In this document: piece by piece, positions 1,946 through 33,575 of the stretch
Numbering within the stretch: position 1 is the stretch's first letter
Layout: every line of letters starts with the position of its first letter
IMG/VR virus record: IMGVR_UViG_637000261_000005
Origin: a virus
Lineage: Duplodnaviria > Heunggongvirae > Uroviricota > Caudoviricetes
Strand: one strand, 5' to 3'
Length of the DNA stretch: 33,575 nucleotides
Notes under the pieces: model-generated
What the model saw: the letters and a program-made list of their open reading frames with translations, nothing else
Databases searched by the model: none
Told to the model about the DNA's origin: nothing
Made by a program: the position numbers and the translations under genes

Positions 1946-1974
1946 ATTCTAGGTTGTATTCTCTAAGATTTAAA
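1946..1974 (-). promoter_or_regulatory. Candidate sigma70 promoter for ogr (-35 TTTAAA, 17-nt spacer, -10 TAGAAT)
   Basis: On the minus strand the -35 is at 1974-1969 and the -10 at 1951-1946. GAGAGG Shine-Dalgarno precedes the ogr ATG. Based on hexamer match only. Confidence 0.3.
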
Positions 1975-2020
1975 CATGACTTTCTCTATATAATGATTTT
2001 TAGCATTAGTTAATAAACGA

Positions 2021-2042
2021 ACGGCACTCTAAGGAGCGCCGT
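2021..2042 (-). terminator. Hairpin 9 nt downstream of the 1039-aa ORF (ACGGCACTC-TAAG-GAGCGCCGT, one mismatch), candidate terminator
   Basis: A 9-bp GC-rich stem sits in an otherwise AT-rich stretch and is followed on the minus strand by TCGTTTATT. It lies between the cargo gene stop (2051) and the ogr promoter candidate. Confidence 0.45.
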
Positions 2043-2050
2043 CAAAGATA

Positions 2051-5000
2051 TTATTCTGATGTCACTCTTTGCGAGTGAGCTATTTTTAAATCAGCGTTTC
2101 CTTCAAATACTATATTCAACTCATAGTTAAGAGTTAGCTTGAATTTATCTGAGTCACTTTTGATATTCTCTGAAGTGACATTTACTAACTTATTATTATC
2201 ATATTCTCTAATAATTAATTTAGTGAAGTAGTTATCCTTTACCACAAGAGAAAATGGTTGATTAACAAATGGTAAGAAGTAAACCTTACGGGTACCGGAT
2301 TCAGTAGTTATGTTCATAGAGCCATCATCATTTTTTCTCATTAGTTCTCTGAGGTTGGGATTATCGAAAAGCATACGATTATATTGCTGAAAGATCTCTT
2401 TACTCATCACAAGAACCAGTTTGCCAGCCAAGTCAGCAGATGATTTTATGTGATCAATCAACATATTGAAATCTTCTATTACGGTATGTTGCGAACAGCC
2501 AGTGCTAAATAAATTTGAAAGTATTATTCTCTGGATGTCCTTGAGAATTAAGTCTGCTTGAATATCACCTTCATTGATATAAGGGATGGATTCTATTCCT
2601 TCGGCATACGGTTCTTTATCTATCTTAATAGATATCTTATGTTTTGTGAAACAATCGCTAGCCTGCTTAAAATCAATAGATTTGAAAAGTGAAAGAGGGA
2701 GCGTTTTCTTGATGCGTTTACGAAGATGTTCTGATGTTTTACGTGCAGTGCTATCTAGTCGATGTACATCTATGGCAGCATCCTGAAGTCTCATATCAAG
2801 ATCTTTCTTTAGCATGTTAATATGCTCTTGAAGCAACTTTCTTAAGTTTTCTTTTTTTGTTTGGAGATCGTCCAATGTTAAAGTCAGCTTGATTTTAGTG
2901 TATTCGATGGAGTTACAAATTTTTGATAATACTCCAATGAGTCGTTGCTTCTCACGATATGTTATATAGTTGTTTTCTATTGCTTCTTTTATTTCTTTTG
3001 ATACGCTATCGTTCTTTTTAGAAAAAATTAATAATAGCTGAACCCATGATTGTTCCATATCAATAAATCCACAGTCAAAAACATTACTGTAAACTCTGCC
3101 CATCACCATGTCTGTTTTATCATAGTCACGTAAACGCCTTGCTAAACTATTCATCCACCCATTGTGCTCCATATTTTCAGACCATGTCCACAGGCAGATT
3201 CTAATTAATATCTTGATTAGTTGGCTTGCATTATCAATTTCTTCAGTGGGAGTTTCATATCCACCGGTTTGGTCAATAAGTTTACCCTCTAAAATAAGTT
3301 TAATGTAATGTGTCATTAGTTTGTCAGAAGTATTGATTCTTGATGTCAGATAAAGACATGTGCATATACGCATGTCAGTCAACGCATTTATGATGGCAAT
3401 ATTGAACCACTCTCTGTCTGAATTGAAGTTTAGTTTTTTGGATATGAAAAAACCCGGGTTAAAAAGCTGGCCTTTGTAACTGTATTTTTCTACCGAATGG
3501 CTGTCAATATTCATTGAGTGCTGCCATCGGTTAATAAGATCGACGGCTGTATCAATAGTAGAAGGATCGCGAGTCTGTGTTGCATCAATAATCATCGATG
3601 GAAGTTCTTGTAGTTGCGTTTTGCAAAATAATTCAAATAAATCTGAATTCTCTGTATTGCAGAAACGAAAGTTTATGCTTTCTTGATATTGCTCCCAAAC
3701 AGTGATATAGGTTCTTAATATACGATTATAACGTGAACGAAGCGAGGCATTTAAGAGTGATTGGTTGTTTCGGAACCATTCTGTTAATATTGACCATTGT
3801 GAACGAGTAATTCCCATATAGATACAAAGTTCATTGCTGATAAGATGTTTTCTATTATTGATAATACGCACTCCGCTCCAAAGACATAATTCAAAAAATC
3901 TTTCAGAAAGATTAATTTTATCCATGGAATTATTTGATATTTTATAAACTTCATCTGAAAACTCATATTGAAAACTCCGTTCAAATAATTCTGTAGTGAT
4001 CAGTAAGAAGTTATTGTTGGTATTATCATCTTGAAAAAAATACAAATCGCAGAGATTATTAAAGTTATTAATTAATGCAGAGATAGCATTGTCAAAACTA
4101 ATGAGATCAGAATCCCGCAGATACATATACGTATCTGCTGTTATAGCCTGCATTGTAAGACTTACGGAAAAATCTCCTCCTTTAATCGGAGCCCTATAAA
4201 AACATTGCTTAAGTATTTTTATTAATAAGCTGTCTGGTTTGATATTTTTAACGCTAAAAAGTATCTTACCCGTGGATTCTGTTTCTTTTGTACGATTATC
4301 ACCAATGACAAATGACGCAAAATGATTCTTCTTTTTTAGTTGGTAATTAATAAGATTAAGAGTAAGTTGAAAAGGACGGTGATATAAACTTAACTCATCT
4401 TCCTTAGAATAACTGCTAGCCACAGATATGTATTCTCCTTTGTAATCGGCTTGCGTGATTTCTAAATTTGAATAGTTATGTTTTTGATAGATAGGGTATA
4501 ACCTAAGCTTGGCTGAGATTTTGTTACAAATATGGGGCATTACTATTTCGAAGGCAATGTATCGCTTTATAATTATTTGCCGTTTTACATCATCAAGAAT
4601 TTCAAGACTCACGATAAAGAACCAAATAGAAAGAACTATGTTTATCAAAAGCCATAATATGCTGATTAGACAAGCTATACCATAAAGATAACTTCCAAAG
4701 ACAGTTTTAATTAGTACACTGAGAAGTATAAATCCTGATAAGAAAAGCCCGCTGAGTCCAGCAAGCATGAATCCTGAGTAACGCTGATAAGCAGTTTGGG
4801 CTATTTTTCTATCTGCCTTTTTTTGGAATAAGACACTTACTAAACCTATAACAAGGGGGTATACAATACCAATAATTGTCAATTGGCCACTTAAAATGGT
4901 TGTTTGCCATTCGGTTAATGAATGCCTAAACGGGAAATAATGTAAAAGATTATTTTTTATAAATAATTCGTTTAAATATCCAACATAAAGTAGTACAAAT

Positions 5001-5170
5001 GAAAAAGCTGATATGCAAAGTACTGATTTAACCGGTGAGGATGTTAATCTTATGATGTTTTTTTCAATAAAATTCCATTTTAAATTCGAATAAAATGGAT
5101 TTTTAACCATTTTATTACGAACATAGTTCTTTGCTAAAATCTCTGTTGCACTTAAAAATTGTCCAATCAT
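2051..5170 (-). CDS. Uncharacterised 1039-aa membrane protein (4-5 N-terminal TM helices plus about 840 aa of soluble, largely helical region); prophage cargo, function unknown
   Basis: A 3.1-kb uninterrupted ORF lies in about 28-32% GC DNA (my hand count of sampled lines), where stop codons should be frequent. Hydrophobic segments occur at about aa 49-66, 91-115, 132-154 and 160-190. A heptad-like charged stretch spans about aa 762-822. I found no Walker A, HExxH, nuclease, TIR or SIR2 signature. Confidence 0.9.
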   Translation of the reverse strand: MIGQFLSATEILAKNYVRNKMVKNPFYSNLKWNFIEKNIIRLTSSPVKSVLCISAFSFVLLYVGYLNELFIKNNLLHYFPFRHSLTEWQTTILSGQLTIIGIVYPLVIGLVSVLFQKKADRKIAQTAYQRYSGFMLAGLSGLFLSGFILLSVLIKTVFGSYLYGIACLISILWLLINIVLSIWFFIVSLEILDDVKRQIIIKRYIAFEIVMPHICNKISAKLRLYPIYQKHNYSNLEITQADYKGEYISVASSYSKEDELSLYHRPFQLTLNLINYQLKKKNHFASFVIGDNRTKETESTGKILFSVKNIKPDSLLIKILKQCFYRAPIKGGDFSVSLTMQAITADTYMYLRDSDLISFDNAISALINNFNNLCDLYFFQDDNTNNNFLLITTELFERSFQYEFSDEVYKISNNSMDKINLSERFFELCLWSGVRIINNRKHLISNELCIYMGITRSQWSILTEWFRNNQSLLNASLRSRYNRILRTYITVWEQYQESINFRFCNTENSDLFELFCKTQLQELPSMIIDATQTRDPSTIDTAVDLINRWQHSMNIDSHSVEKYSYKGQLFNPGFFISKKLNFNSDREWFNIAIINALTDMRICTCLYLTSRINTSDKLMTHYIKLILEGKLIDQTGGYETPTEEIDNASQLIKILIRICLWTWSENMEHNGWMNSLARRLRDYDKTDMVMGRVYSNVFDCGFIDMEQSWVQLLLIFSKKNDSVSKEIKEAIENNYITYREKQRLIGVLSKICNSIEYTKIKLTLTLDDLQTKKENLRKLLQEHINMLKKDLDMRLQDAAIDVHRLDSTARKTSEHLRKRIKKTLPLSLFKSIDFKQASDCFTKHKISIKIDKEPYAEGIESIPYINEGDIQADLILKDIQRIILSNLFSTGCSQHTVIEDFNMLIDHIKSSADLAGKLVLVMSKEIFQQYNRMLFDNPNLRELMRKNDDGSMNITTESGTRKVYFLPFVNQPFSLVVKDNYFTKLIIREYDNNKLVNVTSENIKSDSDKFKLTLNYELNIVFEGNADLKIAHSQRVTSE

Positions 5171-5260
5171 GAATTACTCTTCTATAAAGTGTGGGTCTAC
5201 TAACTAAACTGGAACTTTTACTATTGAGTCATATTCCCTTGGACGGGATGGACTGTGAAG

Positions 5261-5266
5261 ATTATA
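5261..5266 (-). promoter_or_regulatory. Perfect TATAAT -10 hexamer about 90 nt upstream of the cargo ORF (weak -35)
   Basis: The minus strand reads ...CCCACATGACAGAGGAAGTCAAGTATAATCTTC. This is the only consensus -10 I see in the 248-bp AT-rich gap 5171-5418. Confidence 0.25.
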
Positions 5267-5418
5267 CTTGACTTCCTCTGTCATGTGGGAAAAACATCCG
5301 TATTATTGTTAGCATCTGGTTGATGCCCCAACCTCTGACATCTAGTGGGCTGATACATTATCTTTTGTTCTTACTGTCAGTGTAGAAGCACATCTCAAAA
5401 ATAATATTTTTAAGAGAT

Positions 5419-6528
5419 TTATTCTGTTTCTGCTATCCATTCCGGGATTTTTGCTTCAAGTTCAAGCTGCGTGGTAAAGCCGCTGTTATCAATGGTGTGC
5501 TCGGCTTTTGCAATAGTCCAGTCCTGATAATCAATCTCGCTTTTAAAGCCTGTCACTGTGCCATGCATTTCGGGATAGAGTTCTGCACGACCACGCGCCA
5601 GCGTGATGGAGAATGATGCGGCTCCGCGTTGTAGCTGCTGCCACTTTGCCGCCGCTGCGCGTCTTGCTGCCTGCTCGTTCTGATAAGTCTTGCGTAACAC
5701 AAACACGTTGCCTTCCGCACCTTCCATATAGTCGCCTTCCCGACTGCTGCTTTTCTCCTTTTTGGGTTTTGGCGGTTTGCGGCGTTTCACGCTGACTTTT
5801 TTCTTTTTCCCGTAATTAAGATCAAGCCAGTAGGCGCGTACCCCCGTATACGCCTCGCGGTCAGCAATGCGGAACTGATGGCGATCGCCGCTGCTGCGTG
5901 TAATGGCGAACGAGGGCAACGGCTGCCCCTGTGCGTTCACGCCACCACCTGGCATGATGAATAACAGATTGCCGCTTTTTACCGTGGCGATTGCTCCCAG
6001 CATTTCCGCCATGCGCGTAAGAAAGGACATGTCGCTTTCTTCGGTCTGGTCGGCGTGGTCGATTTCGATATCCATCAGCATTTCGCTGATTTGCGGTTTC
6101 AGACCGTACCGATGAGTGATGGCGGATACCACACGCTCAACGGTCACATCATGCCAGGACACCTCACGTTTAACGTTAAATTCATCCCGAAAATCTGCGC
6201 TTCTGGCTGAAACAGTCAGCCTGTCCGGCGGTCCTTCGTGAGCGATTTCATCAACAATGTAAGTGCCTTTTTCTGTCAGCGGTTCCCCTTTCCAGCCAAT
6301 GAGAACCGTCAGACGCGCGCCCCGTGGCGGTAGCTGCAACTGACCATCCGCATCATCCAGCGTGATGGTGAGCTGGTCCGCCTCAAATCCCCGGTTGTCG
6401 GTCAGTTACAGGCTCATCAGGCGCTCCGCCACGCCTGACAGCGTTTTACCCTCCGAGAGAATATCAAAATCCGGCATTTTCACGGGGGCCGTGCCCTGAC
6501 TGAGCAATTGCATGGTGGTGTCGGTCAT
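5419..6528 (-). pseudogene. D: Tail protein gpD with an in-frame TAA after codon 40
   Basis: The two tracked ORFs (6406-6660 and 5419-6339) are in the same frame. Reading through gives ...GVAERLMSL*LTDNRGFEADQLTITLDDADGQLQLPPRGARLTVLIGWKGEPL..., which is colinear with P2 gpD (..RRLISLTMTDNRGFEADQLDIELDD..). The stop is at 6408-6406. The ATG at 6528 is preceded by GGGAGGGAG. Confidence 0.85.
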
Positions 6529-8435: not shown

Positions 8436-8810
8436 ATGAAAGACATCGATACTGAAACCCGGAATAACACCGTGGCGGATAATGTGACGGCAGTTGAGGA
8501 TATGGCTGTCGAACGTGGCGTAAAACTGACCCGACCAATTGAGCGTGGTGCCGAAAAAATCACGTATGTGGAGATCACCGGGGCTATTGAGCAGGCTGGA
8601 TCCCTGCGTGGTCTGTCGCTGTCTGATGTGCTGAATCTGAAAGCGGATACCATGTTCACGCTGTTGCCTCGCGTGACCTCGCCACGACTGGATGAAGTGA
8701 TGATTAAAAAAATGTCGTCACGCGATTTTATTCAGTTGTGCGCTGTGGCTGTAAATTTTATGAGCGAGCCAGACTCTGGCGCGAAGAGCGTGCAGGAGAC
8801 GGCAGCGTAA
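8436..8810 (+). CDS. E: Tail assembly chaperone gpE
   Basis: AAGGAG lies 7 nt upstream of the ATG. The stretch ..LRGLSLSDVLNLKADTMFTLLPRVTSP.. is gpE-like. It occupies the position between tube and tape measure. Confidence 0.85.
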   Translation: MKDIDTETRNNTVADNVTAVEDMAVERGVKLTRPIERGAEKITYVEITGAIEQAGSLRGLSLSDVLNLKADTMFTLLPRVTSPRLDEVMIKKMSSRDFIQLCAVAVNFMSEPDSGAKSVQETAA

Positions 8811-8924: not shown

Positions 8925-11768
8925 GTGAGCGGGCGGCACTTCGTAGCGGGAATGCAGACAATGAAGACTCTTGATATCCGGGTCGCTTTCAGCGCCGTTG
9001 ACAGGCTGACCCGGCCTGCCGAAAACGCCCGCCGCCTGATGGGGCAGTTTGGTGACTCCATCCAGCGAACGCAGGGGGCGATCAAAAATCTCGAGCGTCA
9101 GGCGCGATCATTTGAGCGCGCCCGTGACGCTGTCAGTAAAGCGGATGCTGGCATCGTGAAAGCACGACGCCAGCTTAACGCCCTTAATCAGTTACAACGC
9201 ACGGGTACAGTGCTCAGCGAAAAACAACAAAAGCTGATGCAGCAGTTAAGCACCCGGCTTGAACGCCTGAATGAATCGCGCACACGGGAAATTCAGAAAA
9301 TGCGGGAGCTTGGCGGAGAGCTGAAACGCCACGGCATTTCCCTGACAGGTAGCGATAACACCATCCAGCAGGCCATCAGACGCACCGAACAGTACAACAA
9401 CCAGCTTGAACGCGAACGGCAGGCGCTTGCGCGTGTAACACGGGCGCGTGAGCGGTATTCGCGCGCGCAGGAAACAGCGGGAAAACTGAAAACAGGTGGT
9501 GCGCTGGCAATTGGTGCGGCAGCGGCGGGCGGCTATGCTGCCGGGCGTTTTTTGCAGCCTGCGATCGGGTTCGGCAAAGAGATGTCCCGCGTTCAGGCAC
9601 TGACGCGAATCGACCAGAACAGCCCGCAGTTTAAGGCGCTGCGTGAGCAGGCGTTAAAACTTGGCTCTGAAACGCAGTTCACCGCAGGCGATGCCGCCAG
9701 TGGACAGGCATTTCTTGCAATGGCTGGCTTTACACCACAGGCCATTCAGGCTGCGCTCCCTGGCGTACTGAGCATGGCAACGGCTGGCGGTATGGACCTC
9801 GGTGAGACGGCGGATATTGGCTCAAATATTCTGACGCAGTTCGGTCTTTCTGCTGACCAGATGGACCGGGTCGGCGACACACTCACCGCAGCGTTTACCC
9901 GTACCAACACTGACCTTCGCGCACTGGGTGAAACCATGAAATATGCAGGTCCGGTGGCGGGTAAGCTGGGAATATCTCTGGAGCAGGCCGCAGCGATGGC
10001 GGGCGTGCTGGCGAATATGGGTATCAGGGGGAGTGATGCTGGTACGGCAATGCGTGCCAGCCTGGCTCGTCTGGCATCACCGCCAAAGGCGGCAGCAGAG
10101 GCGCTGAAAGAGCTTGGCGTGTCTGTCTCGGATGCCGGGGGCAAAATGCGCCCGATGGAGGATGTGCTGGCTGACCTTTATAAAGCTACCCGCAAATACG
10201 GGGAAGTTGACCGGGTATCGTTCTTTAAGGACATTGCCGGAGAAGAGGCTTTCACATCATTTATGGCCCTCGTTGATGCGGCAGGTGACGGCTCCTTACC
10301 CAAACTGAGAAAAGAACTTGAAGGCGCGCGCGGTGAGGCTGAACGCACGGCAAAGGTTATGGCCAACAACCTTGACGGCGATCTGAAATCACTCAGCAGT
10401 GCATGGGAAGGGTTGCGCATCCGCATTGCAGATCTGATTGACGGTCCGCTGCGTTCTGTCACGCAGTGGCTCACGCGTGTGGTATCAAAGGTGACGGCGC
10501 TGGCGCAGGCCCATCCCGCACTGACGCGCCAGCTACTGATTGCAGGCGGTGCATTGCTGGCAATGACTGCAACGGTTGGCTCGTTGTCGCTGGCTATTGG
10601 TGTGCTTGCTGGCCCGCTGGCAAAACTGCGTCTTGGTTTTTCCCTCCTGACCGGATCAATGAATGCTGTCAGGGTTCTGCCAGCACTATGGGGAATGGTG
10701 ACGGGTTCCGTTTCTTTACTGGGAGGCGCTATCGGGGCGTTGTTCAGTCCGGTTGGTCTTATCGTGGCTGCGCTTGCCGGAGCTGCCGTTCTTATCTGGA
10801 AATACTGGGATCCCATCAGGGCATTTTTTGCCGGGGTGTTCAGCGGGATTATGGAAAGGCTGACCCCGTTGCGCGAAACCTTTGAACGGTTTGGTCCTGT
10901 TTTTGACGCAATCGGGAGTGGGATCAGCCAGGTGTTTAACTGGTTTAAATCGCTGCTGTCACCGATGGAGTCCAGCAAGGAAACTCTGGATAAATGTACC
11001 AGTGCTGGCGAGATATTCGGTAACGTTCTTGGCGGTGCGTTACAACTTGTTCTGACACCTGCAAAAATGTTGCTGGATACGCTGGCGTGGATACTTGAAA
11101 AGCTTGGTGTGCTTCCGGATGAAGCGGAAAGGGCGCGCAAGAAAATCGAAGACGCACAGCGTGCGGCCATTCTTCAGGACAAGGTTGCCTTGCTTCAGGG
11201 GGATCTGGCGAAAATCAATCCGCCGAAGCCTGTGGAAAATGGCAATGGCACCGGAGGTGATAACCCCAAAGACAATAAACCGCTCACAGACAGCAATACC
11301 GGTACGCTGCGCAGACTCAGCAAAATTGCTGATAACACAGGTAAGCTGGTTGAGGAGACGAAAAAACGCATTGGCCCCGGCGATATTGTCTTTAAAAACC
11401 TGCCCCGAGCACTTGCTGTTCGTGGGGAGTGGCAGGAGCGGAAGATTGCGCAGGTCAGTAAGCCTGCCCCCGCAATTAATATCACACCCGTGGTTCCGGC
11501 TCCGCTGCCTCCGGCGCTGGTCCCTGTTGTTGCAGCCAGCTCCCGCCCGGTGGCGGAGGCTATACGATCTCCAGTGGCATCAGTTCCTGTAACTTCCCGT
11601 AACCGGGAGCCTGTTGCCTTCGGATTTGGTGGTGAAATTCATGTTCATCTGCATAACGTTGTTACGCAGAATCCCCGCGAACTGGCGAAACTGGTCGGTG
11701 AAATGGTCAGGGCAGAAATGGAACGGCGCGCCCGTGCCGGGCGTGGCTGTTTTTACGATAAAGATTGA
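8925..11768 (+). CDS. T: Tail tape measure protein (gpT)
   Basis: 947 aa. It has an N-terminal coiled-coil character and a central Gly/Ala-rich hydrophobic block, and sits after E/E'. The true start may be the ATG at 8952 or 8961 rather than the GTG at 8925. Confidence 0.9.
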   Translation: MSGRHFVAGMQTMKTLDIRVAFSAVDRLTRPAENARRLMGQFGDSIQRTQGAIKNLERQARSFERARDAVSKADAGIVKARRQLNALNQLQRTGTVLSEKQQKLMQQLSTRLERLNESRTREIQKMRELGGELKRHGISLTGSDNTIQQAIRRTEQYNNQLERERQALARVTRARERYSRAQETAGKLKTGGALAIGAAAAGGYAAGRFLQPAIGFGKEMSRVQALTRIDQNSPQFKALREQALKLGSETQFTAGDAASGQAFLAMAGFTPQAIQAALPGVLSMATAGGMDLGETADIGSNILTQFGLSADQMDRVGDTLTAAFTRTNTDLRALGETMKYAGPVAGKLGISLEQAAAMAGVLANMGIRGSDAGTAMRASLARLASPPKAAAEALKELGVSVSDAGGKMRPMEDVLADLYKATRKYGEVDRVSFFKDIAGEEAFTSFMALVDAAGDGSLPKLRKELEGARGEAERTAKVMANNLDGDLKSLSSAWEGLRIRIADLIDGPLRSVTQWLTRVVSKVTALAQAHPALTRQLLIAGGALLAMTATVGSLSLAIGVLAGPLAKLRLGFSLLTGSMNAVRVLPALWGMVTGSVSLLGGAIGALFSPVGLIVAALAGAAVLIWKYWDPIRAFFAGVFSGIMERLTPLRETFERFGPVFDAIGSGISQVFNWFKSLLSPMESSKETLDKCTSAGEIFGNVLGGALQLVLTPAKMLLDTLAWILEKLGVLPDEAERARKKIEDAQRAAILQDKVALLQGDLAKINPPKPVENGNGTGGDNPKDNKPLTDSNTGTLRRLSKIADNTGKLVEETKKRIGPGDIVFKNLPRALAVRGEWQERKIAQVSKPAPAINITPVVPAPLPPALVPVVAASSRPVAEAIRSPVASVPVTSRNREPVAFGFGGEIHVHLHNVVTQNPRELAKLVGEMVRAEMERRARAGRGCFYDKD

Positions 11769-25340: not shown

Positions 25341-27092
25341 ATGATTCAGGACGCTTTTGTGCGCCAGCGTGCGCGGCAACTTTACTGGCAGGGTTATCCG
25401 CCCGCAGAAATATCACGTCTGATGGGAATAAACCCGAACACGATTTATGCGTGGAAAAAACGTGACCAGTGGGATGAAACGCCACCCGGGCAGCGTGTCA
25501 CGCAGTCCATCGATGCGCGCCTCATCCAGCTTACTGAAAAACAGAATAAAACAGGCGGTGACTTTAAGGAAATAGACCTGCTGACCCGGCAGCTTAAAAA
25601 GCTGCATGATGGCCAGCCGGATGTGATGGCCGCAGGAAAGAAAGGCCGGGCGAAAAAACTCAAAAATCATTTCACGCCGGAACAGATTGCCGCACTGCGG
25701 GAAAAAATCATCAGCAGGCTGGAGTGGCATCAGCGGGGCTGGTTTGACTCCCTGACCCTTTGCAGGGAAGCCGGGATACGTAACAGGATGATCCTGAAAT
25801 CCCGACAGATTGGGGCGACCTGGTATTTTGCACAGGAAGCACTGCTGATGGCGCTGCGTGACGATGTGGCGCAACCTTACCAGCGTAACCAGATTTTTTT
25901 GTCTGCGTCGCGTCGTCAGGCGTTCCAGTTTAAAAGCATTATTCAGAAGGCCGCGGCTGAAGTTGATGTGGAGCTGAAAGGGGGCGATAAAATCATCCTC
26001 TCCAACGGCGCAGAGCTGCATTTTCTCGGCACTTCTGCTGCGTCGGCACAGTCCTATACGGGCAATTTTTATTTTGATGAATTTTTCTGGGTCAGTCGCT
26101 TTGCTGAACTGCGCAAGGTGGCTGGCGCTATGGCAACCCTCAGCGGACTGCGGCGCACCTACTTCTCCACGCCATCCACCGAAACGCACGAGGCATACGC
26201 CTACTGGAACGGCGACCGCTGGAACGAGAAAAAGGCCTCGCATAAACGCCAGCGTTTTTCTGTGGACTGGAAAACGCTGCATAACGGGCTTATCTGCCCT
26301 GACCGGACGTGGCGGCAAATTGTCACGCTGGAAGATGTGGTTAATCACGGCTGGAAACACACCGATATCGACGAAATTCGTGATGAAAACACCGAAGACG
26401 AGTTCCTCAATCTCTATATGTGTGAGTTTGTCCGCGAAGGGGAATCGGCATTTAACCTGAATATCCTGATTGGCTGCGGCGTTGACGGATACGACGACTG
26501 GAAAGACTGGAAACCTTTTGCTCCCCGCCCGATGGGGAATCGTCCGGTATGGATTGGGTATGACGCAAACGGCAGCAGTGGCAACGGCGACAGCGGCGCT
26601 GTGTCCGTGGTGGTTCCTCCGTCTGTTCCTGGTGGCCGTTTTCGAACGGTGGAGACGCGACGCGTTCAGGGGCTGGAGTTTGAAGAACAGGCCAGAGTCA
26701 TTGAAGAGTTCACGTGTCGCTACAACGTGGAACACATCGGCATTGATGTGACGGGCGGGAACGGGGAGGCTGTTTATCAGATAGTGAAACGGTTTTTCCC
26801 TGCCGCTATTCCGTACACCTTCACGCTGTCATCAAAACGGTCGCTGGTACTGAAAATGCTGCAAATAATGCGTGCCGGGCGGTGGGAATACGATCGCGCC
26901 GAACGCGAGCTGGTCGCGGCCTTTAACGCCGTGCGTAAGGTGAAAACACCGGGCGGCTTTATCACTTACGAAACGGACCGAGCGAGGGGGATCAGCCACG
27001 GCGACCTTGCGTGGGCAACCATGCTTGCTGTCATTAACGAACCGATTGGCGGCGAAGGAGAAAACGAGCGTTTCACGGTTATGGAGTTCTGA
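25341..27092 (+). CDS. P: Terminase large (ATPase) subunit gpP
   Basis: 583 aa, divergent from O and followed by Q as in P2. Confidence 0.9.
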   Translation: MIQDAFVRQRARQLYWQGYPPAEISRLMGINPNTIYAWKKRDQWDETPPGQRVTQSIDARLIQLTEKQNKTGGDFKEIDLLTRQLKKLHDGQPDVMAAGKKGRAKKLKNHFTPEQIAALREKIISRLEWHQRGWFDSLTLCREAGIRNRMILKSRQIGATWYFAQEALLMALRDDVAQPYQRNQIFLSASRRQAFQFKSIIQKAAAEVDVELKGGDKIILSNGAELHFLGTSAASAQSYTGNFYFDEFFWVSRFAELRKVAGAMATLSGLRRTYFSTPSTETHEAYAYWNGDRWNEKKASHKRQRFSVDWKTLHNGLICPDRTWRQIVTLEDVVNHGWKHTDIDEIRDENTEDEFLNLYMCEFVREGESAFNLNILIGCGVDGYDDWKDWKPFAPRPMGNRPVWIGYDANGSSGNGDSGAVSVVVPPSVPGGRFRTVETRRVQGLEFEEQARVIEEFTCRYNVEHIGIDVTGGNGEAVYQIVKRFFPAAIPYTFTLSSKRSLVLKMLQIMRAGRWEYDRAERELVAAFNAVRKVKTPGGFITYETDRARGISHGDLAWATMLAVINEPIGGEGENERFTVMEF

Positions 27093-28138
27093 TGAGCAGA
27101 AAAAATAAAAAAGTGCGCATGAGTTCACGCATTGATCTCGCTGATGCGCTCAGGAAAGAATCATCGCTCAGTGCATTCACATTTGATGGTCCTTATCGCC
27201 TGACCGGGCATGACCTGCTGGACAATATGTACTGTGCTGATAACGGGCGGTGGTATGAAACCCCGGTGGACTGGTACGGTCTGGCAAGAGCTGCCCGGCA
27301 AACGTCCTGGCATCAGTCTGCGCTTTATTTTAAGCGCAATGTATTGCTCGGTTGCTACATCCCGCACCCGCTGCTTTCCCGGCAGGATTTCTCGGCGCTG
27401 GCGCTGGACTGGTTTGTGTTCGGTAACGCATTCCTTGAGCTTCGAAGCAATATGCTCGGCGAACCGCTTAAATTACGGCACGCCCTGGCGAAATACATGC
27501 GACGCGGAAGCGATCTTGAATCATGGAGGTATGTGCAGGATGGCAAGGATGCGTTTCAGTTTCGCCCAGGCAAAGTGTGTCACCTGATGAATCCTGACAT
27601 TAACCAGGAAATCTACGGCATGCCGGAATATCTCGGCGCATTACTCTCGGCCAGCCTGTCTCATTCGGCGGACATGTTCAGAAAACTGTATTACGACAAC
27701 GGATCCCACGCCGGGTGCATCATCTACATCGGTGCCGCGCAGGTAAACCGCGAAAGCATGGACTCCCTGAAAGAAACGCTACAGGGTGCGCGTGGTGGTG
27801 GTGCGTTTAAAAACGTGCTCATTCATGCGCCCAACGGGGGCAAAGAGGGGGTGCAAATTTTGCCGTTCCAGCAGATCACCGCAAAGGATGAGTTCATGAA
27901 TGTTAAGGCGGCATCCCGTGATGATGTGCTGGCTGCGCACCGCGTTCCGCCGCAACTGATGGGGGCGATGCCGGGTGAAAAAAGTGCGTTTGGTGATGTG
28001 GAGAAGGCCGCGCGGGTTTACGCAATTAACGAGCTGATGCCCGTCATGGAGGCCATGAAGCACATCAATGACTGGCTTGGCGAAGAGGTGATCCGCTTTA
28101 ACCCTTACGCACTGTTAGACATCCAGCCCACATCCTGA
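27092..28138 (+). CDS. Q: Portal protein gpQ
   Basis: 348 aa. It has an ATGA overlap with P and is the last late gene before the non-coding cos-type region. Confidence 0.9.
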   Translation: MSRKNKKVRMSSRIDLADALRKESSLSAFTFDGPYRLTGHDLLDNMYCADNGRWYETPVDWYGLARAARQTSWHQSALYFKRNVLLGCYIPHPLLSRQDFSALALDWFVFGNAFLELRSNMLGEPLKLRHALAKYMRRGSDLESWRYVQDGKDAFQFRPGKVCHLMNPDINQEIYGMPEYLGALLSASLSHSADMFRKLYYDNGSHAGCIIYIGAAQVNRESMDSLKETLQGARGGGAFKNVLIHAPNGGKEGVQILPFQQITAKDEFMNVKAASRDDVLAAHRVPPQLMGAMPGEKSAFGDVEKAARVYAINELMPVMEAMKHINDWLGEEVIRFNPYALLDIQPTS

Positions 28139-28164
28139 CGCGCTTCGCTTGTCTGCTGCTTCGC

Positions 28165-28189
28165 CGGGGCATAAAAAATTTATGCCCCG
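28165..28189 (+). terminator. Perfect 11-bp hairpin after gpQ (CGGGGCATAAA-AAA-TTTATGCCCCG)
   Basis: Seen directly, 27 nt after the Q stop. No U-tract follows, so terminator function is uncertain. Confidence 0.4.
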
Positions 28190-28468
28190 ACTCTCCAGCT
28201 CCTGTATCAGTCAGATAATTTCACGACGCCTTCCAGTTTATCGCCACCATCGACGGTCAGACTCTTACGCAATCCCACCGCGTTGACTGCATGTTCTCGC
28301 CGCCTCAGTGCGATTTTGACGGCCTTACCTTTCACCCCATCAAATCAGAATCCCTCACGTATTTTTCACGCTCAGCGTGAGAAATACGGCCATTCTGTCG
28401 TGTCGCTGCGACATCGTTAAGGGAACGCTATTTACCCCCTGAAACGCGGGCTGTTCCCCCGTCACCTG

Positions 28469-28492
28469 CGCGCAGAAAAAGCGCGTTTTTTT
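28469..28492 (+). terminator. CGCGC-AGAAAAA-GCGCG hairpin followed by T7: rho-independent terminator-like
   Basis: A GC stem plus a run of seven T residues on the plus strand. Confidence 0.4.
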
Positions 28493-28561
28493 GTGCACGC
28501 ACGGATCCTTGACGGATCCAGCCGCCACGCGGGCTGGAAGGGCAAAAATTCGTTCAAAAAA

Positions 28562-28588
28562 ATTGTGCAAATTTGTGCACTATTGTGC
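28562..28588. repeat. Three TTGTGCA heptamers at exact 10-bp phasing, with a fourth copy at 28491-28497
   Basis: aTTGTGCAaatTTGTGCActaTTGTGCAgc, seen directly. The nearby direct repeat is ACGGATCC-TTG-ACGGATCC (28499-28517). Confidence 0.6.
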
Positions 28589-28628
28589 AGCAGGGCGATG
28601 TGCGATTATCGCCCTGGTTTGAGGGGGA

Positions 28629-29219
28629 TCAGGTGTTATTTTTATCTGTCGTCAGTGGGCTAAACCATCCACAATTTACATCGCATGACTGATGCGTTCT
28701 GTCCTCGTGTTTCTCCTGCCACAATGCTTTTCCGCCAGCCTTTATGATGGCTCTTTCAACATCCCGCTCGTATCGCAAGGGCTGAAATACGTCATTAATG
28801 AAATATTCGCTTATGTCCGGAAGCGATACTGCAAAATTATTTGTTTGTTGCGCCGTCCTGCTATGCAGCAAAGCGGCATGCTTTAATGCGTCCTGTGCTT
28901 TCTGGAATTTAAGTGCATAGTCAGTGGCGATTTTTTCCAGTTCAGCGATTCGGTTGTCTTTGGTTTCCAGCCAATCAAGTAGCGCCAATACTTCAGGATC
29001 CCCGACATCCAACACTGTTACGCGTGATTTTTCATAATGTTCGTCAGCAAGAGTTCGGCCAATTTTGAAATCTCCATCATCACCATAACCGGAGCAGGCA
29101 TAAACAACCTGTGCTCCAGATATTCGCTGAATTGACATTTCCTCGCCGCAAATAGGGCATTTCGGTACTGGCACAGGTGAATAACGTTCACGTAATGCCT
29201 GATAGTTGATTTCGCTCAT
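28629..29219 (-). CDS. Hypothetical protein with an N-terminal Cys-pair (zinc-ribbon-like) motif and an Ea22-like coiled-coil motif
   Basis: 196 aa. It contains ..KCPICGEEM...VYACSG.. and ..LLDWLETKDNRIAELEK.., reminiscent of lambdoid ead/Ea22-like proteins. A hairpin CAGGGCGAT..ATCGCCCTG lies just downstream (28590-28615). Confidence 0.6.
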   Translation of the reverse strand: MSEINYQALRERYSPVPVPKCPICGEEMSIQRISGAQVVYACSGYGDDGDFKIGRTLADEHYEKSRVTVLDVGDPEVLALLDWLETKDNRIAELEKIATDYALKFQKAQDALKHAALLHSRTAQQTNNFAVSLPDISEYFINDVFQPLRYERDVERAIIKAGGKALWQEKHEDRTHQSCDVNCGWFSPLTTDKNNT

Positions 29220-29282
29220 TAAGTCGTTCTCCTTGTTTATGTTCTGAGGTGGAGAGCAGGGCGAACTCGCCCTGATGTTGTG

Positions 29283-29594
29283 TTATTCAGGAAATAACGC
29301 CCGGATATTTCCGGCCATCTGACTGGTTATCTGTGCGGTTGATACTGGCTGTGATGCGGGGCGTTCTGTCCTGGTTTGTGTCACTGATAACGCTTCATCA
29401 CCAGCCCATGCAGCCAGTCGATAAGCCTCTGCCGGATTCATTTTCAGAAGTGCCAGCCCGGCCAGAAAAGCCACGCGTTGGCCGCTTTTGCGGGCTTCTG
29501 GTGTAAGGCTGTCCAGCCAGGCGCATGCTTCTCCTTCGTTCTTGACGGCGGTGGGCTTCAGATAGAAACTTATCCGTCTGGTTGGAGTCGTCAT
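29283..29594 (-). CDS. ParR/StbB-like partition adaptor (103 aa)
   Basis: The start MTTPTRRISFYLKP is preceded by AAGGAG. ..ACAWLDSLTPEARKSGQRVAFLAGLALLKMNP.. parallels R1 ParR (..CDTLDSIPQGERSRLNRAALTAGLALYRQNP..). The gene lies immediately downstream of the ParM-like gene. Confidence 0.7.
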   Translation of the reverse strand: MTTPTRRISFYLKPTAVKNEGEACAWLDSLTPEARKSGQRVAFLAGLALLKMNPAEAYRLAAWAGDEALSVTQTRTERPASQPVSTAQITSQMAGNIRALFPE

Positions 29595-29598
29595 TGGT

Positions 29599-30204
29599 TT
29601 ACTCCTTGTCCATTGCGTACAGCCCATTAACCAGAGCAAACTGTGGCACCCCGTCCGCGATGAAAGTCGCATTAACTCCGCAGGCTTCGCGGATAGCGGG
29701 TGCCACAATCTCCGCCCCTCCACCGACAACCATCACCCGCCCGTAACCCGAAAAAACCGCCAGCGCGCGGATCACGCGTTGTTTCAGTGTTTCTTCCTTT
29801 TCACGAATTACCGCCATCAGGCTGGCGTAATGCGCGTCATTGTGGATGTGCTGGCGCAGCCAGGCTTCATCATGGCGATGTTCGATAATGGTATTGGCGA
29901 TGTGGTGACTGGTGCGCATACCGTTAGTGGCCATCACCGACAGTACGGCATCGGCCATCAGAGAAACGCCCACGTGTGGATCGCAAAACACCTGGCTGAT
30001 ACCTGCCAGTTGCCCCTGAACCTTTGCCACATCCAGCGTGGTTCCGCCCAAATCCACAATCAGCAGGGATTCAAACGGACTCATGTCAGCCAGTGCCTTA
30101 AAGCCAGCCGGAATGGATTCAGGCATAACCTGTACGTTACGGATAGTGAATGCTTCGCCGTTCTGGTACTCCACCGGGCGCATGACGTTCGCTTTTTTGC
30201 GGTT
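29599..30204 (-). pseudogene. ParM/StbA-like actin-type segregation ATPase, 5'-truncated by IS911 (about 118 N-terminal codons missing)
   Basis: [73 protein letters not shown].. is colinear with R1 ParM (..[38 protein letters not shown]...[28 protein letters not shown]..). The homology starts exactly at the IS911 end. Confidence 0.85.
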
Positions 30205-30212
30205 TGAAGTGG

Positions 30213-31381
<1,169 letters not shown>

Positions 31382-31453
31382 TGGAGCACCTGTGTTGTTC
31401 TGAGGTGAGCATATCACCTCTGTTCAGGTGGCCAAATTCAGTGTGCCACTTCA

Positions 31454-31718
31454 AACCGAAGAACACGGCGGTGCGGAGTCCGGAGAGTAACGGAATAGCA
31501 GAGAGCTTCGTGAAAACGATAAAGCGTGACTACATCAGTATCATGCCCAAACCAGACGGGTTAACGGCAGCAAAGAACCTTGCAGAGGCGTTCGAGCATT
31601 ATAACGAATGGCATCCGCATAGTGCGCTGGGTTATCACTCGCCACGGGAATATCTGCGGCAGCGGGCTTGTAATGGGTTAAGTGATAACAGATGTCTGGA
31701 AATATAGGGGCAAATCCA
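31454..31718 (+). mobile_element. IS2 right-end fragment (last 265 bp), truncated by IS911
   Basis: It matches 1455-1719 of the full copy with one difference that I can see (CGC to CAC, R to H). It ends GGGGCAAATCCA at 31718. Confidence 0.9.
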
Positions 31719-31917
31719 CTGCGGCACAGATCAGCTCGGAAAGTTCGTTAAGTGCATCCAGATCATCAGCGTAAAAAGCCACGTCATACAGACTTCGGAT
31801 TGCTCTGGTCAATGAGTCACGGGCCGCACGTTCAGCATGAGCGCCTGATGCACTTAAGCGAAAATAAAAACGCTCAAGTGCTTTGTTAATGAGAGTTTTA
31901 TATTCTTTGCCCATCAC
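31719..31917 (-). pseudogene. Hypothetical early-region gene, 3'-truncated by the IS2 fragment
   Basis: MMGKEYKTLINKALERFYFRLSASGAHAERAARDSLTRAIRSLYDVAFYADDLDALNELSELICAAV. The tracked ORF then reads into IS2 and ends with the same [12 protein letters not shown] tail as ogr::IS2. Confidence 0.5.
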
Positions 31918-31925
31918 AACGCCCT

Positions 31926-32126
31926 TTAATCTGCTTTCTGTATTTCAGCTTCTGAATCCATACAAATAATTTCGATATAGGGTTCATCGCCATTAACCTG
32001 GCGTGCCTTTTCAGCTTCGCTAATGATTTCTTGTACGGTCTGGTACGGAAGTTCCACAAGCAGTCGCGTGCCGTTCAGATAAACGTAAGTGGCTTCGTCG
32101 GCTCCGTTTTTACCCGCCGGAGTCAC
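31926..32126 (-). CDS. Hypothetical small protein or gene fragment abutting IS629 (possibly 5'-truncated)
   Basis: The 66-aa ORF starts (GTG) at the very first base outside the IS629 end. No recognisable family. Confidence 0.35.
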   Translation of the reverse strand: MTPAGKNGADEATYVYLNGTRLLVELPYQTVQEIISEAEKARQVNGDEPYIEIICMDSEAEIQKAD

Positions 32127-32168
32127 TGAACCGCCCCGGGTTTCCTGGAGAGTGTTTTATCTGTGAAC

Positions 32169-33059
32169 TCAGGCTGCCAGATCATCGTTTCCGATGGAAG
32201 CATAATAAGCTTTTTCTGCTTCTGCCGGAGGGATGTGGCCCAGCCTTTCCAGCAATCGTCGATTATTATACCAGTCCACCCACGTGAGTGTGGCCAGTTC
32301 CACTTCTGCACGGTTTTTCCAGCTCTTACGGTGTATTACCTCCGCTTTGTAAAGACCATTGATGCTCTCCGCCATCGCGTTGTCATACGAGTCGCCTGTA
32401 CTTCCTGTTGATGCCAGTAATCCGGCTTCCTTAAGCCGCTGTGTGTAGGCCAGCGATACATACTGAGAACCTTTATCACTGTGATGGACCGTGCCGGACG
32501 GTCGACGGGCCCATAACGCCTGCTCCAGTGCATCCAGCACGAATGTCGTCTCCATGGACGATGAGACCCGCCACCCCACGATGTATCCGGCAAACACATC
32601 AATGATGAACGCCACATAGACGAAGCCCTGCCATGTGCTGACGTAAGTAAAATCAGCCACCCACAGCTGGTCAGGTCGTTCTGCCACGAACTGACGGTTT
32701 ACGCGGTCGCCTGCGGCAACGGCTTTCCGGCTGATGGTCGTACGGACCTTTTTACCCCGGAGAACACCGGCAAGTCCCATAACCGCCATGAGACGTGCCA
32801 CAGTGCATCTGGCCACTCTGATGCCTTCCCGTAACAACTGACGCCAGACTTTACGCACACCGTATACCTGATGATTCCCATCGTATACGCGCAGTATCTC
32901 TTTCTTCAGCCAGTCATCGCGCTGCGCACGGGCACTGCGTTTATCAGGATGATGTCGCTGTTGCTGACAGTGGTAATACGTTGACGGGGCAATATGTAGT
33001 TCACTGCATACCGGTCCGACCCCGTACAGCTTACGCAGCTTATCCAGCAGTGGCATCAC
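32169..33059 (-). CDS. IS629 OrfB (DDE transposase)
   Basis: 296-aa ORF with ..[27 protein letters not shown]...[10 protein letters not shown].... Confidence 0.9.
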
Positions 33060-33382
33060 TTTTTCCAGAGGCGGTCGAACTCCGCCTTCGCAAAATAAGC
33101 GGAAGCCTGGCGAAGGATATCGTTACTGCGGCGCAGTTCACGATTTTCACGTTCCAGCTCTTTCAGACGCTGACGTTCAGCGGTGGTGAGCCCGCCATCA
33201 CCGCCTCCGGTATCCCGCTCATGCTGGCGTACCCAGACACGCAGAGTCTCCGGTGTACAGCCAATCTTTGGGGCAATGGAACAAATTGCCGCCCACTGTG
33301 AGTCATATTCGCCCTGACTTTCCAGAACCATACGAATCGCCCTCTGACGGACTTCGGGGGAAAAACGAGTATTTTTAGTCAT
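33056..33382 (-). CDS. IS629 OrfA
   Basis: [64 protein letters not shown]... Confidence 0.9.
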
Positions 33383-33437
33383 CCTGTTTACCTCTTTCTC
33401 AGGGAGTTTAGTCTCCAGGATTCCCGGGGCGGTTCAC

Positions 33438-33575
33438 ATGATGAACGGCGGCAATATTCTGACGCTCCAGAAAATTCTGGGGCACGCAAAGATTCAGACA
33501 ACGATGATTTATGCCCATCTTGCGCCGGATTACCTGCAGGATGCGGTGAGGTTTAATCCACTAGGAGGTGCTTAA
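33438..33575 (+). pseudogene. int: Tyrosine integrase, last 45 codons only (5' part removed at the IS629 junction)
   Basis: Own translation: MMNGGNILTLQKILGHAKIQTTMIYAHLAPDYLQDAVRFNPLGGA*. This is the C-terminal catalytic-Tyr box (..LGH....T..YAH) of phage integrases. The stop codon is the last 3 nt of the window. Confidence 0.85.

Follow-up and report, generated by a model that had tools for sequence, protein, structure and literature searches.

An IS911-truncated ParM/ParR/Ea22-like gene block in a decayed P88-like prophage and the intact, gpA-linked ParM/ParR pair of its relatives

The closest described systems for a three-gene block at positions 28629–30204 of the IMG/VR virus record IMGVR_UViG_637000261_000005 (Caudoviricetes; 33,575 nucleotides (nt), the whole of which is referred to below as the window) are the plasmid-type actin partition systems of the R1/R100 ParMRC kind (ParM/StbA, ParR/StbB and parC), the AlpC/AlpA/alpS system of the Corynebacterium glutamicum prophage CGP3, the partition genes recorded in P2-like prophages and, for the third gene, the Ea22 protein of phage lambda. 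CGP3 is an integrated prophage in which the actin-like AlpC and its adaptor AlpA serve viral DNA transport and replication (PMC4446434, PMC5539076). For P2-like prophages, the gpA–gpQ interval is a documented defence hotspot, a putative partition system was reported for about one quarter of the phages, and the supplement of that survey lists the exact three-gene block (Rousset et al. 2022, Cell Host Microbe, PMC9122126). Because NCBI already names the products ParM, plasmid partitioning/stability protein and ead/Ea22-like protein, because PHROGs groups both partners as 'partition protein', and because the block is listed in the 2022 survey, the gene block counts as already known; new here are a candidate minimal centromere/operator palindrome pair and a near 1:1 linkage of the partition pair to one type of gpA. 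The window copy itself matters little, as a pseudogene in a decayed prophage; in about one quarter of Escherichia coli genomes, an integrating phage harbours a plasmid-type actin segregation pair that is intact and strongly conserved, and the gpA-type linkage and the palindrome pair together provide a concrete starting point for functional work.

Compared with R1/R100 ParMRC, the intact phage loci encode a full-length ParM homologue with its motifs kept, a ParR of the same family (PF10784) with a comparable C-terminal tail, and the same order of parM followed by parR, with a 4-nt gap between them in the phage loci. The differences lie in the carrier, which is an integrating, rolling-circle P2-like phage with the pair placed directly behind gpA; in the upstream region, where a 76-nt gap with two palindromes is found in place of an iteron array of 240–340 base pairs (bp) with its own promoter; in the length of ParR, with 103 amino acids (aa) against 116–147 aa; and, for the window, in the truncation of ParM and the deletion of the upstream region. 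The likeness to CGP3 consists of an integrated prophage with an actin-like ATPase and a DNA-binding adaptor, the CGP3 pair acting on excised, replicating DNA, whereas the host phylum and the phage type are different and AlpC is a divergent actin-like protein, in contrast to the P88 protein, which is a close ParM homologue. By analogy, AlpC/AlpA would be the favoured functional model for the P88-like ParMR. The survey of Rousset et al. concerned the same locus and treated the pair as hotspot content, whereas here the pair appears as a gpA-linked backbone of the lineage, with the variable slot beginning after parR and with the window copy as an IS911-truncated remnant.

In the window, all three genes are located on the minus strand and comprise an intact Ead/Ea22-like gene (28629–29219, 196 aa; Pfam PF13935 Ead_Ea22), an intact ParR/StbB-type adaptor gene (29283–29594, 103 aa; Pfam PF10784, PHROG 2515) and a parM pseudogene (29599–30204; PF21523), which retains the last 201 codons and the stop codon of a 319-aa ParM. 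The listing of open reading frames (ORFs) and the profile searches confirmed the genes and the positions given in the initial annotation, and its assignments to the ParM, ParR and Ea22 families were upheld by matches far beyond chance. The ParM fragment matched PF21523 with an E value of 2.3e-69, and StbA_N was matched over its final 39 positions only (Pfam). The annotation had put the loss to the insertion sequence (IS) element IS911 at roughly 118 codons; relative to intact 319-aa homologues exactly 118 N-terminal codons are missing, with IS911 at the breakpoint. The phosphate-1 motif IDDGSTNIK falls in this deleted N-terminus and residues 119–319 remain, so the window does not hold a full-length ParM with intact nucleotide-binding motifs, which was found in the intact relatives (the E. 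coli prophage L001, P88 and others). Only two differences from L001 were observed within the remaining 606 nt of parM; the similarity to intact loci breaks off at 30204, and the IS911 terminal repeat TGAAGTGGTCAACAAAAACTGGCC starts at 30205. The loss of the region upstream of parM, likewise proposed earlier, is real: the upstream sequence known from relatives, including both conserved palindromes, is absent from the window, and no further copy of the palindrome occurs in it. The window module is a dead one, with only parR and the Ea22-like gene intact, and the identity of the block as ParM/ParR/Ea22-like, together with its pseudogene status, is held with near certainty. As a side observation, the truncated parM frame stays open for another 15 nt within the IS911 terminal repeat and reaches a TTG codon (29599–30219, minus strand). 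Read-through from IS911, which has the same orientation, could in principle express the C-terminal ParM fragment, ParR and the Ea22-like protein.

The window is a P88-like prophage (Xuanwuvirus, Peduoviridae), and the block forms the right-hand end of its early operon. Positions 9000–33575 are covered to 80–83% at 97–98% identity by Xuanwuvirus phages, namely P88, P884B11 and Citrobacter phage Shae_phiSM, with collinearity across the tail, head, terminase and portal genes. The search for intact versions of the block in P2-like phages, which the initial annotation had suggested, was successful, and a common order of gpA (913–946 aa, Pfam Phage_GPA), parM (319 aa), parR (103 aa), one or more variable genes, cos and portal gene was observed in phages P88, P884B11, Shae_phiSM and vB_EcoM-569R5; in a circular 34.5-kb record; in eight E. 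coli loci, including O157:H7 and ST131; and in Escherichia albertii, Salmonella, Cronobacter and Hafnia. Among 5426 complete E. coli genomes, the parMR segment was present in 1307 (24%), with 1278 of them at 80% coverage or more, and the locations were 1453 chromosomal against 2 on plasmids. The 3' 1.2 kb of P88-type gpA was found in 1355 genomes at the same coverage threshold, and the linkage of parMR to the gpA type is almost 1:1. The parM–parR pair is a conserved backbone of P88-like phages and is vertically inherited with P88-type gpA. These counts, and the retention of the pair in Hafnia and Cronobacter, run counter to the former description of three cargo genes occupying the slot, and a partition system present in 24% of the complete E. 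coli genomes can no longer be called unexpected in such phages.

Variation was confined to the stretch from parR to cos, and the true hotspot therefore starts after parR. The Ea22-like gene follows parR in 226 genomes (those covering at least 80% of a 2.2-kb query); elsewhere, the same stretch contains two small hypothetical genes in P88, a plus-strand membrane protein gene in phiSM, and DUF4760 and a hypothetical gene in ST131; in one Hafnia locus it is empty. Within the window block, only the Ea22-like gene is real hotspot cargo, and hotspot surveys should count the variable slot from parR and not from gpA.

Beyond these loci, a ParM scan of genome contigs gave three species representatives only and adds little beyond Enterobacterales. 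One contig of 226 kb labelled Vagococcus sp. (Firmicutes; L011, NZ_JBQPOM010000071.1) encodes a ParM that shares 98% identity with its E. coli phage counterpart and most likely represents contamination or assembly mislabelling. Phage 500465-2 (Gemsvirus) was considered as a close relative devoid of ParMR, and its record proved to be a truncated prophage prediction with host genes and hence uninformative.

The intact phage ParM aligns with R1 ParM (PDB 1mwk) over residues 2–316 at about 50% identity (E 1.2e-92) and keeps the nucleotide-binding motifs, including GGGAE. Among themselves, the phage ParMs share 95% identity or more, and the closest plasmid ParMs, from IncF and IncL/M plasmids, are 52% identical to them, followed by the ParM of the P1-like phage-plasmid D6 with 47.5%. 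Pairwise ratios of nonsynonymous to synonymous substitution (dN/dS) of parM were 0.06–0.10 at dS up to 0.21, values that point firmly to strong purifying selection. Judged by homology and conserved motifs, the pair can be identified as a genuine type II (R1-like) actin-type partition pair, acquired long ago. The initial annotation had left room for IS-mediated chimerism. In such a chimera, IS911 or another IS would have brought a plasmid ParM/ParR beside a P2-like prophage, and the window is indeed full of IS elements, with IS911 directly abutting parM. However, a recent IS-mediated transfer from a plasmid is excluded because the phage ParMs are so much more alike among themselves than to the nearest plasmid ParM, only 52% identical; the intact gpA–parM–parR–cos synteny is present in isolated phages that form plaques or were induced (P88, Shae_phiSM and P884B11) and, with no IS911, in over 1200 E. 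coli chromosomes; and on the side of IS911 the prophage lost sequence instead of gaining it. Practically no credence is left for such chimerism.

For parR, the mechanical ORF extends over 29283–29729, and the start was taken as the ATG at 29594, which is used by all homologues and gives a protein of 103 aa. This ParR matched Pfam PF10784 Plasmid_stab_B (E 7.8e-23) and PHROG 2515 'partition protein' (E 5e-57), it is identical to WP_000211289 of L001, and the best PDB match of the family profile was ParR/StbB of pB171 (2JD3; E 0.014, residues 8–69). Homologues with 52–97% identity keep an N-terminal RRISFYLKP strand region, two helices and a C-terminal NIRALFPE tail, and the linker between them (residues ~66–92) is hypervariable. 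The protein would accordingly have the layout expected of a ParR, in which a flexible linker joins the DNA-binding domain to a tail that contacts ParM, with an N-terminus probably of the ribbon-helix-helix fold; like a ParR adaptor, it is small and encoded directly downstream of parM. Several ParR alleles (L006, L007, L008 and L009, compared with L001) were also observed, with the first ~18 and the last ~8 residues in common and an overall difference of up to ~45%, strongest in the linker, next to ParMs that stay at least 98% identical; this pattern suggests recombination or a relaxed constraint on the linker.

Upstream of parM, a repeat search of the phage loci revealed no R1-like iteron arrays, and the iteron-rich parC regions of the plasmid relatives are non-homologous to the phage gap. 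The same search identified two 38-nt direct repeats, 73 bp apart (8492–8529 and 8565–8602 of L001), which bracket the gpA stop codon, one being located in the last gpA codons and the other in the gap. Each repeat contains the palindrome GGGAyT-N4-AATCCC, which occurs upstream of parM only and nowhere else in the whole phage genomes; from E. coli to Hafnia the arms and the spacing are maintained, with changes in the central 4 nt and in the flanking sequence. A scan of the region ahead of parM detected no sigma-70 consensus promoter in either the E. coli or the Hafnia loci. The palindrome pair is a candidate for a minimal ParR-binding centromere/operator placed around a weak promoter-like stretch, resembling R1 parC in miniature.

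From these features, a mode of action can be proposed for the intact module. Dimers of ParR would bind the two palindromes around the gpA stop codon, just upstream of parM, the NIRALFPE tail of ParR would capture ParM-ATP filaments, and the filaments would push apart or position circular, non-integrated phage genomes. The parMR genes would be co-expressed with gpA from the early promoter, and the module would act for limited periods, in the interval between infection and integration and, once the phage is induced, while gpA drives replication, and not as the support of a long-term plasmid prophage; the co-expression and the transient action are suggested because the parMR genes lie in the early operon behind gpA, a consensus promoter is absent and the module is almost always chromosomal. 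In P2, gpA-driven rolling-circle replication yields monomeric circles, which are the packaging substrate, and such circles would resemble a population of plasmids and could serve a ParMRC machine as its substrate. Taken by itself, this mode of action, which is read from sequence, is a near-balanced case that leans slightly towards doubt, and the joint account of identity, pseudogene status and mode of action leans slightly towards acceptance. More tentatively still, the P88-like module may be a stripped-down ParMRC, with an R1-like ParM, a 103-aa ParR and a two-palindrome centromere/operator, overlapping the gpA end, that is coupled to a rolling-circle replicon and positions or separates its monomeric circles while they are not integrated, possibly with a facultative carrier or episomal state. 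If true, this would amount to a phage cytoskeleton in the P2 family, with the window as a dead witness of it.

Several observations weigh against this proposal. No experiments on any P88-like ParMR were found in the searchable literature, and the AlphaFold model of the ParR monomer was of low confidence (predicted local distance difference test, pLDDT, 56), too poor for a fold search. The absence of a consensus promoter is weak evidence, and weak -35/-10-like hexamers between the palindromes leave room for expression in the lysogenic state. Only two sites are present, against the 240–340 bp iteron arrays of plasmid relatives, and one palindrome copy lies within the gpA coding sequence, which inflates its conservation. 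A circular 34.5-kb P88-like record makes an episomal state visible at least occasionally. Moreover, the palindromes form hairpins that receive terminator-like scores on the antisense strand, and they may not be ParR sites at all. They could instead be antisense intrinsic terminators or RNA hairpins, with the true ParR site elsewhere or lost and ParMR being parC-less or merely autoregulated: T-rich tracts follow both palindromes on the opposite strand, the terminator-like call was obtained in the E. coli as well as the Hafnia loci, and constant arms with a variable centre also suit a hairpin loop. As terminators, however, they would serve transcripts that cross 1.3 kb of parR–parM in the antisense direction, which would be an odd placement; the two copies keep a fixed 73-bp spacing around the gpA stop codon and occur nowhere else in the genome; and R1-type plasmids (locus L015) have parC iterons on both sides of the promoter that precedes parM, a similar layout, although the number of sites is very different. 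The terminator explanation is on the unlikely side, yet deserves to be kept in view.

The circular record also bears on long-term maintenance as a plasmid, in which ParMR would keep P88-like phages as low-copy phage-plasmids. This idea, related to the phage-plasmid ancestor and the episomal phase considered in the initial annotation, was tentatively raised by Rousset et al. 2022 (PMC9122126), and it agrees with the presence of a bona fide plasmid-type partition pair, with the related ParM of the P1-like phage-plasmid D6 and with the circular 34,461-bp PLSDB record pZ1323PEC0009-2, a complete P88-like genome. In complete E. coli assemblies, however, the 1453 chromosomal places stand against 2 plasmid places, a count at odds with an autonomous phage-plasmid, to which the circular PLSDB record is the exception; all intact relatives keep the integrase and the C/Cox switch; and gpA is a rolling-circle initiator (Pfam Phage_GPA; the replication mode being that of P2) and not a copy-controlled theta replicon. 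P88 and phiSM were moreover described as integrated, inducible prophages, with P88 induced from the chromosome and phiSM lysogenising by integration (PMC5285337, PMC6456863), and the single circular record could be excised DNA from spontaneous induction. Plasmid maintenance fits poorly and is judged improbable, and the transient action on circular phage genomes proposed above is preferred to it. Besides gpA and parMR, the record itself (L004, NZ_CP148288.1, labelled 'plasmid') contains the integrase and C/Cox; it represents either a rare episomal state or phage DNA that had been excised and was then captured by the assembly.

The location of the pair raises the further possibility of repurposed cargo, in which the actin-like pair, with or without the Ea22-like protein, would serve exclusion, defence or incompatibility, for example by destabilising competing plasmids or phages or by manipulating the host. 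Such a role suits a position in the gpA–gpQ interval with its defence hotspot, and in other loci defence-like cargo (e.g. AAA and Peptidase_S8) is inserted beside StbA/Plasmid_stab_B. On the other hand, a search of PADLOC-DB at E values up to 0.01 assigned none of the three proteins (ParM, ParR and the Ea22-like protein) to a family; parMR tracks the gpA type, unlike variable hotspot cargo; the catalytic motifs of ParM, the termini of ParR and the gene order correspond to a functional partition system; and lambda Ea22 favours lysogeny and is tied to the lysis–lysogeny decision, not to defence (PMC7093339, PMC10834534). Repurposing is accordingly considered quite improbable, even more so than plasmid maintenance, and a partition-type function is retained as the preferred account of the pair.

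The Ea22-like protein matched PF13935 with an E value of 2.1e-32 (113 bits against a cut-off of 27), and it shares 98% identity with a cluster comprising 486 sequences. The CPIC and YACSG motifs and the Ea22-like segment described earlier for the 196-aa protein were all recovered, at residues 21–24, 40–44 and, for LLDWLETKDNRIAELEK, 79–95. Its homologues form a three-part mosaic of an exchangeable N module, a coiled coil and an exchangeable C-terminal domain, in which the coiled-coil segment LLxxLE...RIAELE is the only part conserved throughout the family, with invariant columns L80, L81, L84, A92 and L94 within LLDWLE...RIAELEK. Residues C21, C24, C42 and H61 are conserved only among homologues with the same N module, others having Cys-free modules, and the Pfam zinc-ribbon matches were all sub-threshold (E 0.014–0.11); the label 'zinc ribbon' given to the protein is a plausible but provisional one. 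With lambda Ea22 the protein shares the Ead_Ea22 N-terminal and coiled-coil region (E 2e-32) and the tripartite modular build. It differs in an unrelated C-terminal domain, in the C-x2-C...C...H motif of its N module, unlike many members of the family, and in the location of its gene, which closes a P2-like early operon on the cos side and is not part of an exo–xis region. No PDB sequence match was obtained at E values up to 10, and hence the C-terminal (dimerisation) domain of lambda Ea22 is not present in the window protein.

The locus lies between gpA and the portal gene, in agreement with its placement in the cos-adjacent slot that corresponds to the old/tin position of P2. In the window, the portal gene gpQ occupies 27092–28138 on the plus strand, and cos presumably falls in the intergenic region between gpQ and the Ea22-like gene (28139–28628). 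The two ends of the linear P884B11 (Xuanwuvirus) record correspond to window positions 28544/28545, and a P2 cos 19-mer was not found in the window with up to 3 mismatches allowed. By its position and by these record termini, cos is presumed to lie between gpQ and the end of the early operon.

The truncation of parM is one among several IS-associated lesions, and the prophage is a defective remnant. A complete IS911 of 1249 bp occupies 30205–31453 on the minus strand (terminal repeats read directly; orfA 31079–31417, orfB 30213–31052) and gives a 100% match to the annotated IS911 of phage Sf6. It abuts the 3' fragment of a second IS on the plus strand (31454–31718; ORF 31381–31707), where GGGGCAAATCCA ends at 31719; from its InsD C terminus and its terminal repeat, we take this fragment to be IS2. 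Next to it, 409 bp of the phage early region survive (31719–32127, minus strand), with a DUF4754 gene (31678–31917; Pfam E 1.8e-41) and part of the next gene; by blastn this piece matches 13340–13748 of L001 at 98.8% and 31672–32080 of the Shae_phiSM record. The surviving piece shows that, relative to the intact L001, 5.2 kb have been lost up to parM codon 118. This IS911-bounded deletion, between parM codon 118 and the DUF4754 gene, removed parM codons 1–118, the upstream control region, the gpA replication endonuclease gene and several neighbouring early genes. Further along, an IS3-like element (~32128–33400) and a C-terminal integrase fragment (33439–33575), 78% identical to phiSM int, are present, and an IS3-family element is located near the left end (401–1719). 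The cox and C genes and most of int are also gone, and in all, four or more IS elements or fragments interrupt the prophage. The IS911–parM junction was observed in none of the 5426 complete E. coli genomes, and the only record found to have it was a Shigella boydii contig (PLSDB), so that the prophage probably derives from Shigella.

Two minor observations concern the left part of the window. Relative to other P88-like phages, a 3.5-kb insert of low GC content (~33%) is present between ogr and gpD (1957–5422) and carries a single ORF of 1039 aa (2051–5170, minus strand), whose product combines several N-terminal membrane passes with a large soluble portion. This ORF had no match in Pfam or PADLOC, was present in 5 of the 5426 complete E. 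coli genomes, and is named 'MFS transporter' or 'hypothetical' by PGAP; it may be an orphan cargo gene or an abortive-infection gene that occupies a second site of insertion. In the Shae_phiSM record (L003, OR565851.1), the 369-aa 'ogr/Delta-like zinc finger family protein' is Phage_GPD by Pfam, corresponding to window positions 5419–6339, and the product names in that record appear to be shifted or mislabelled.

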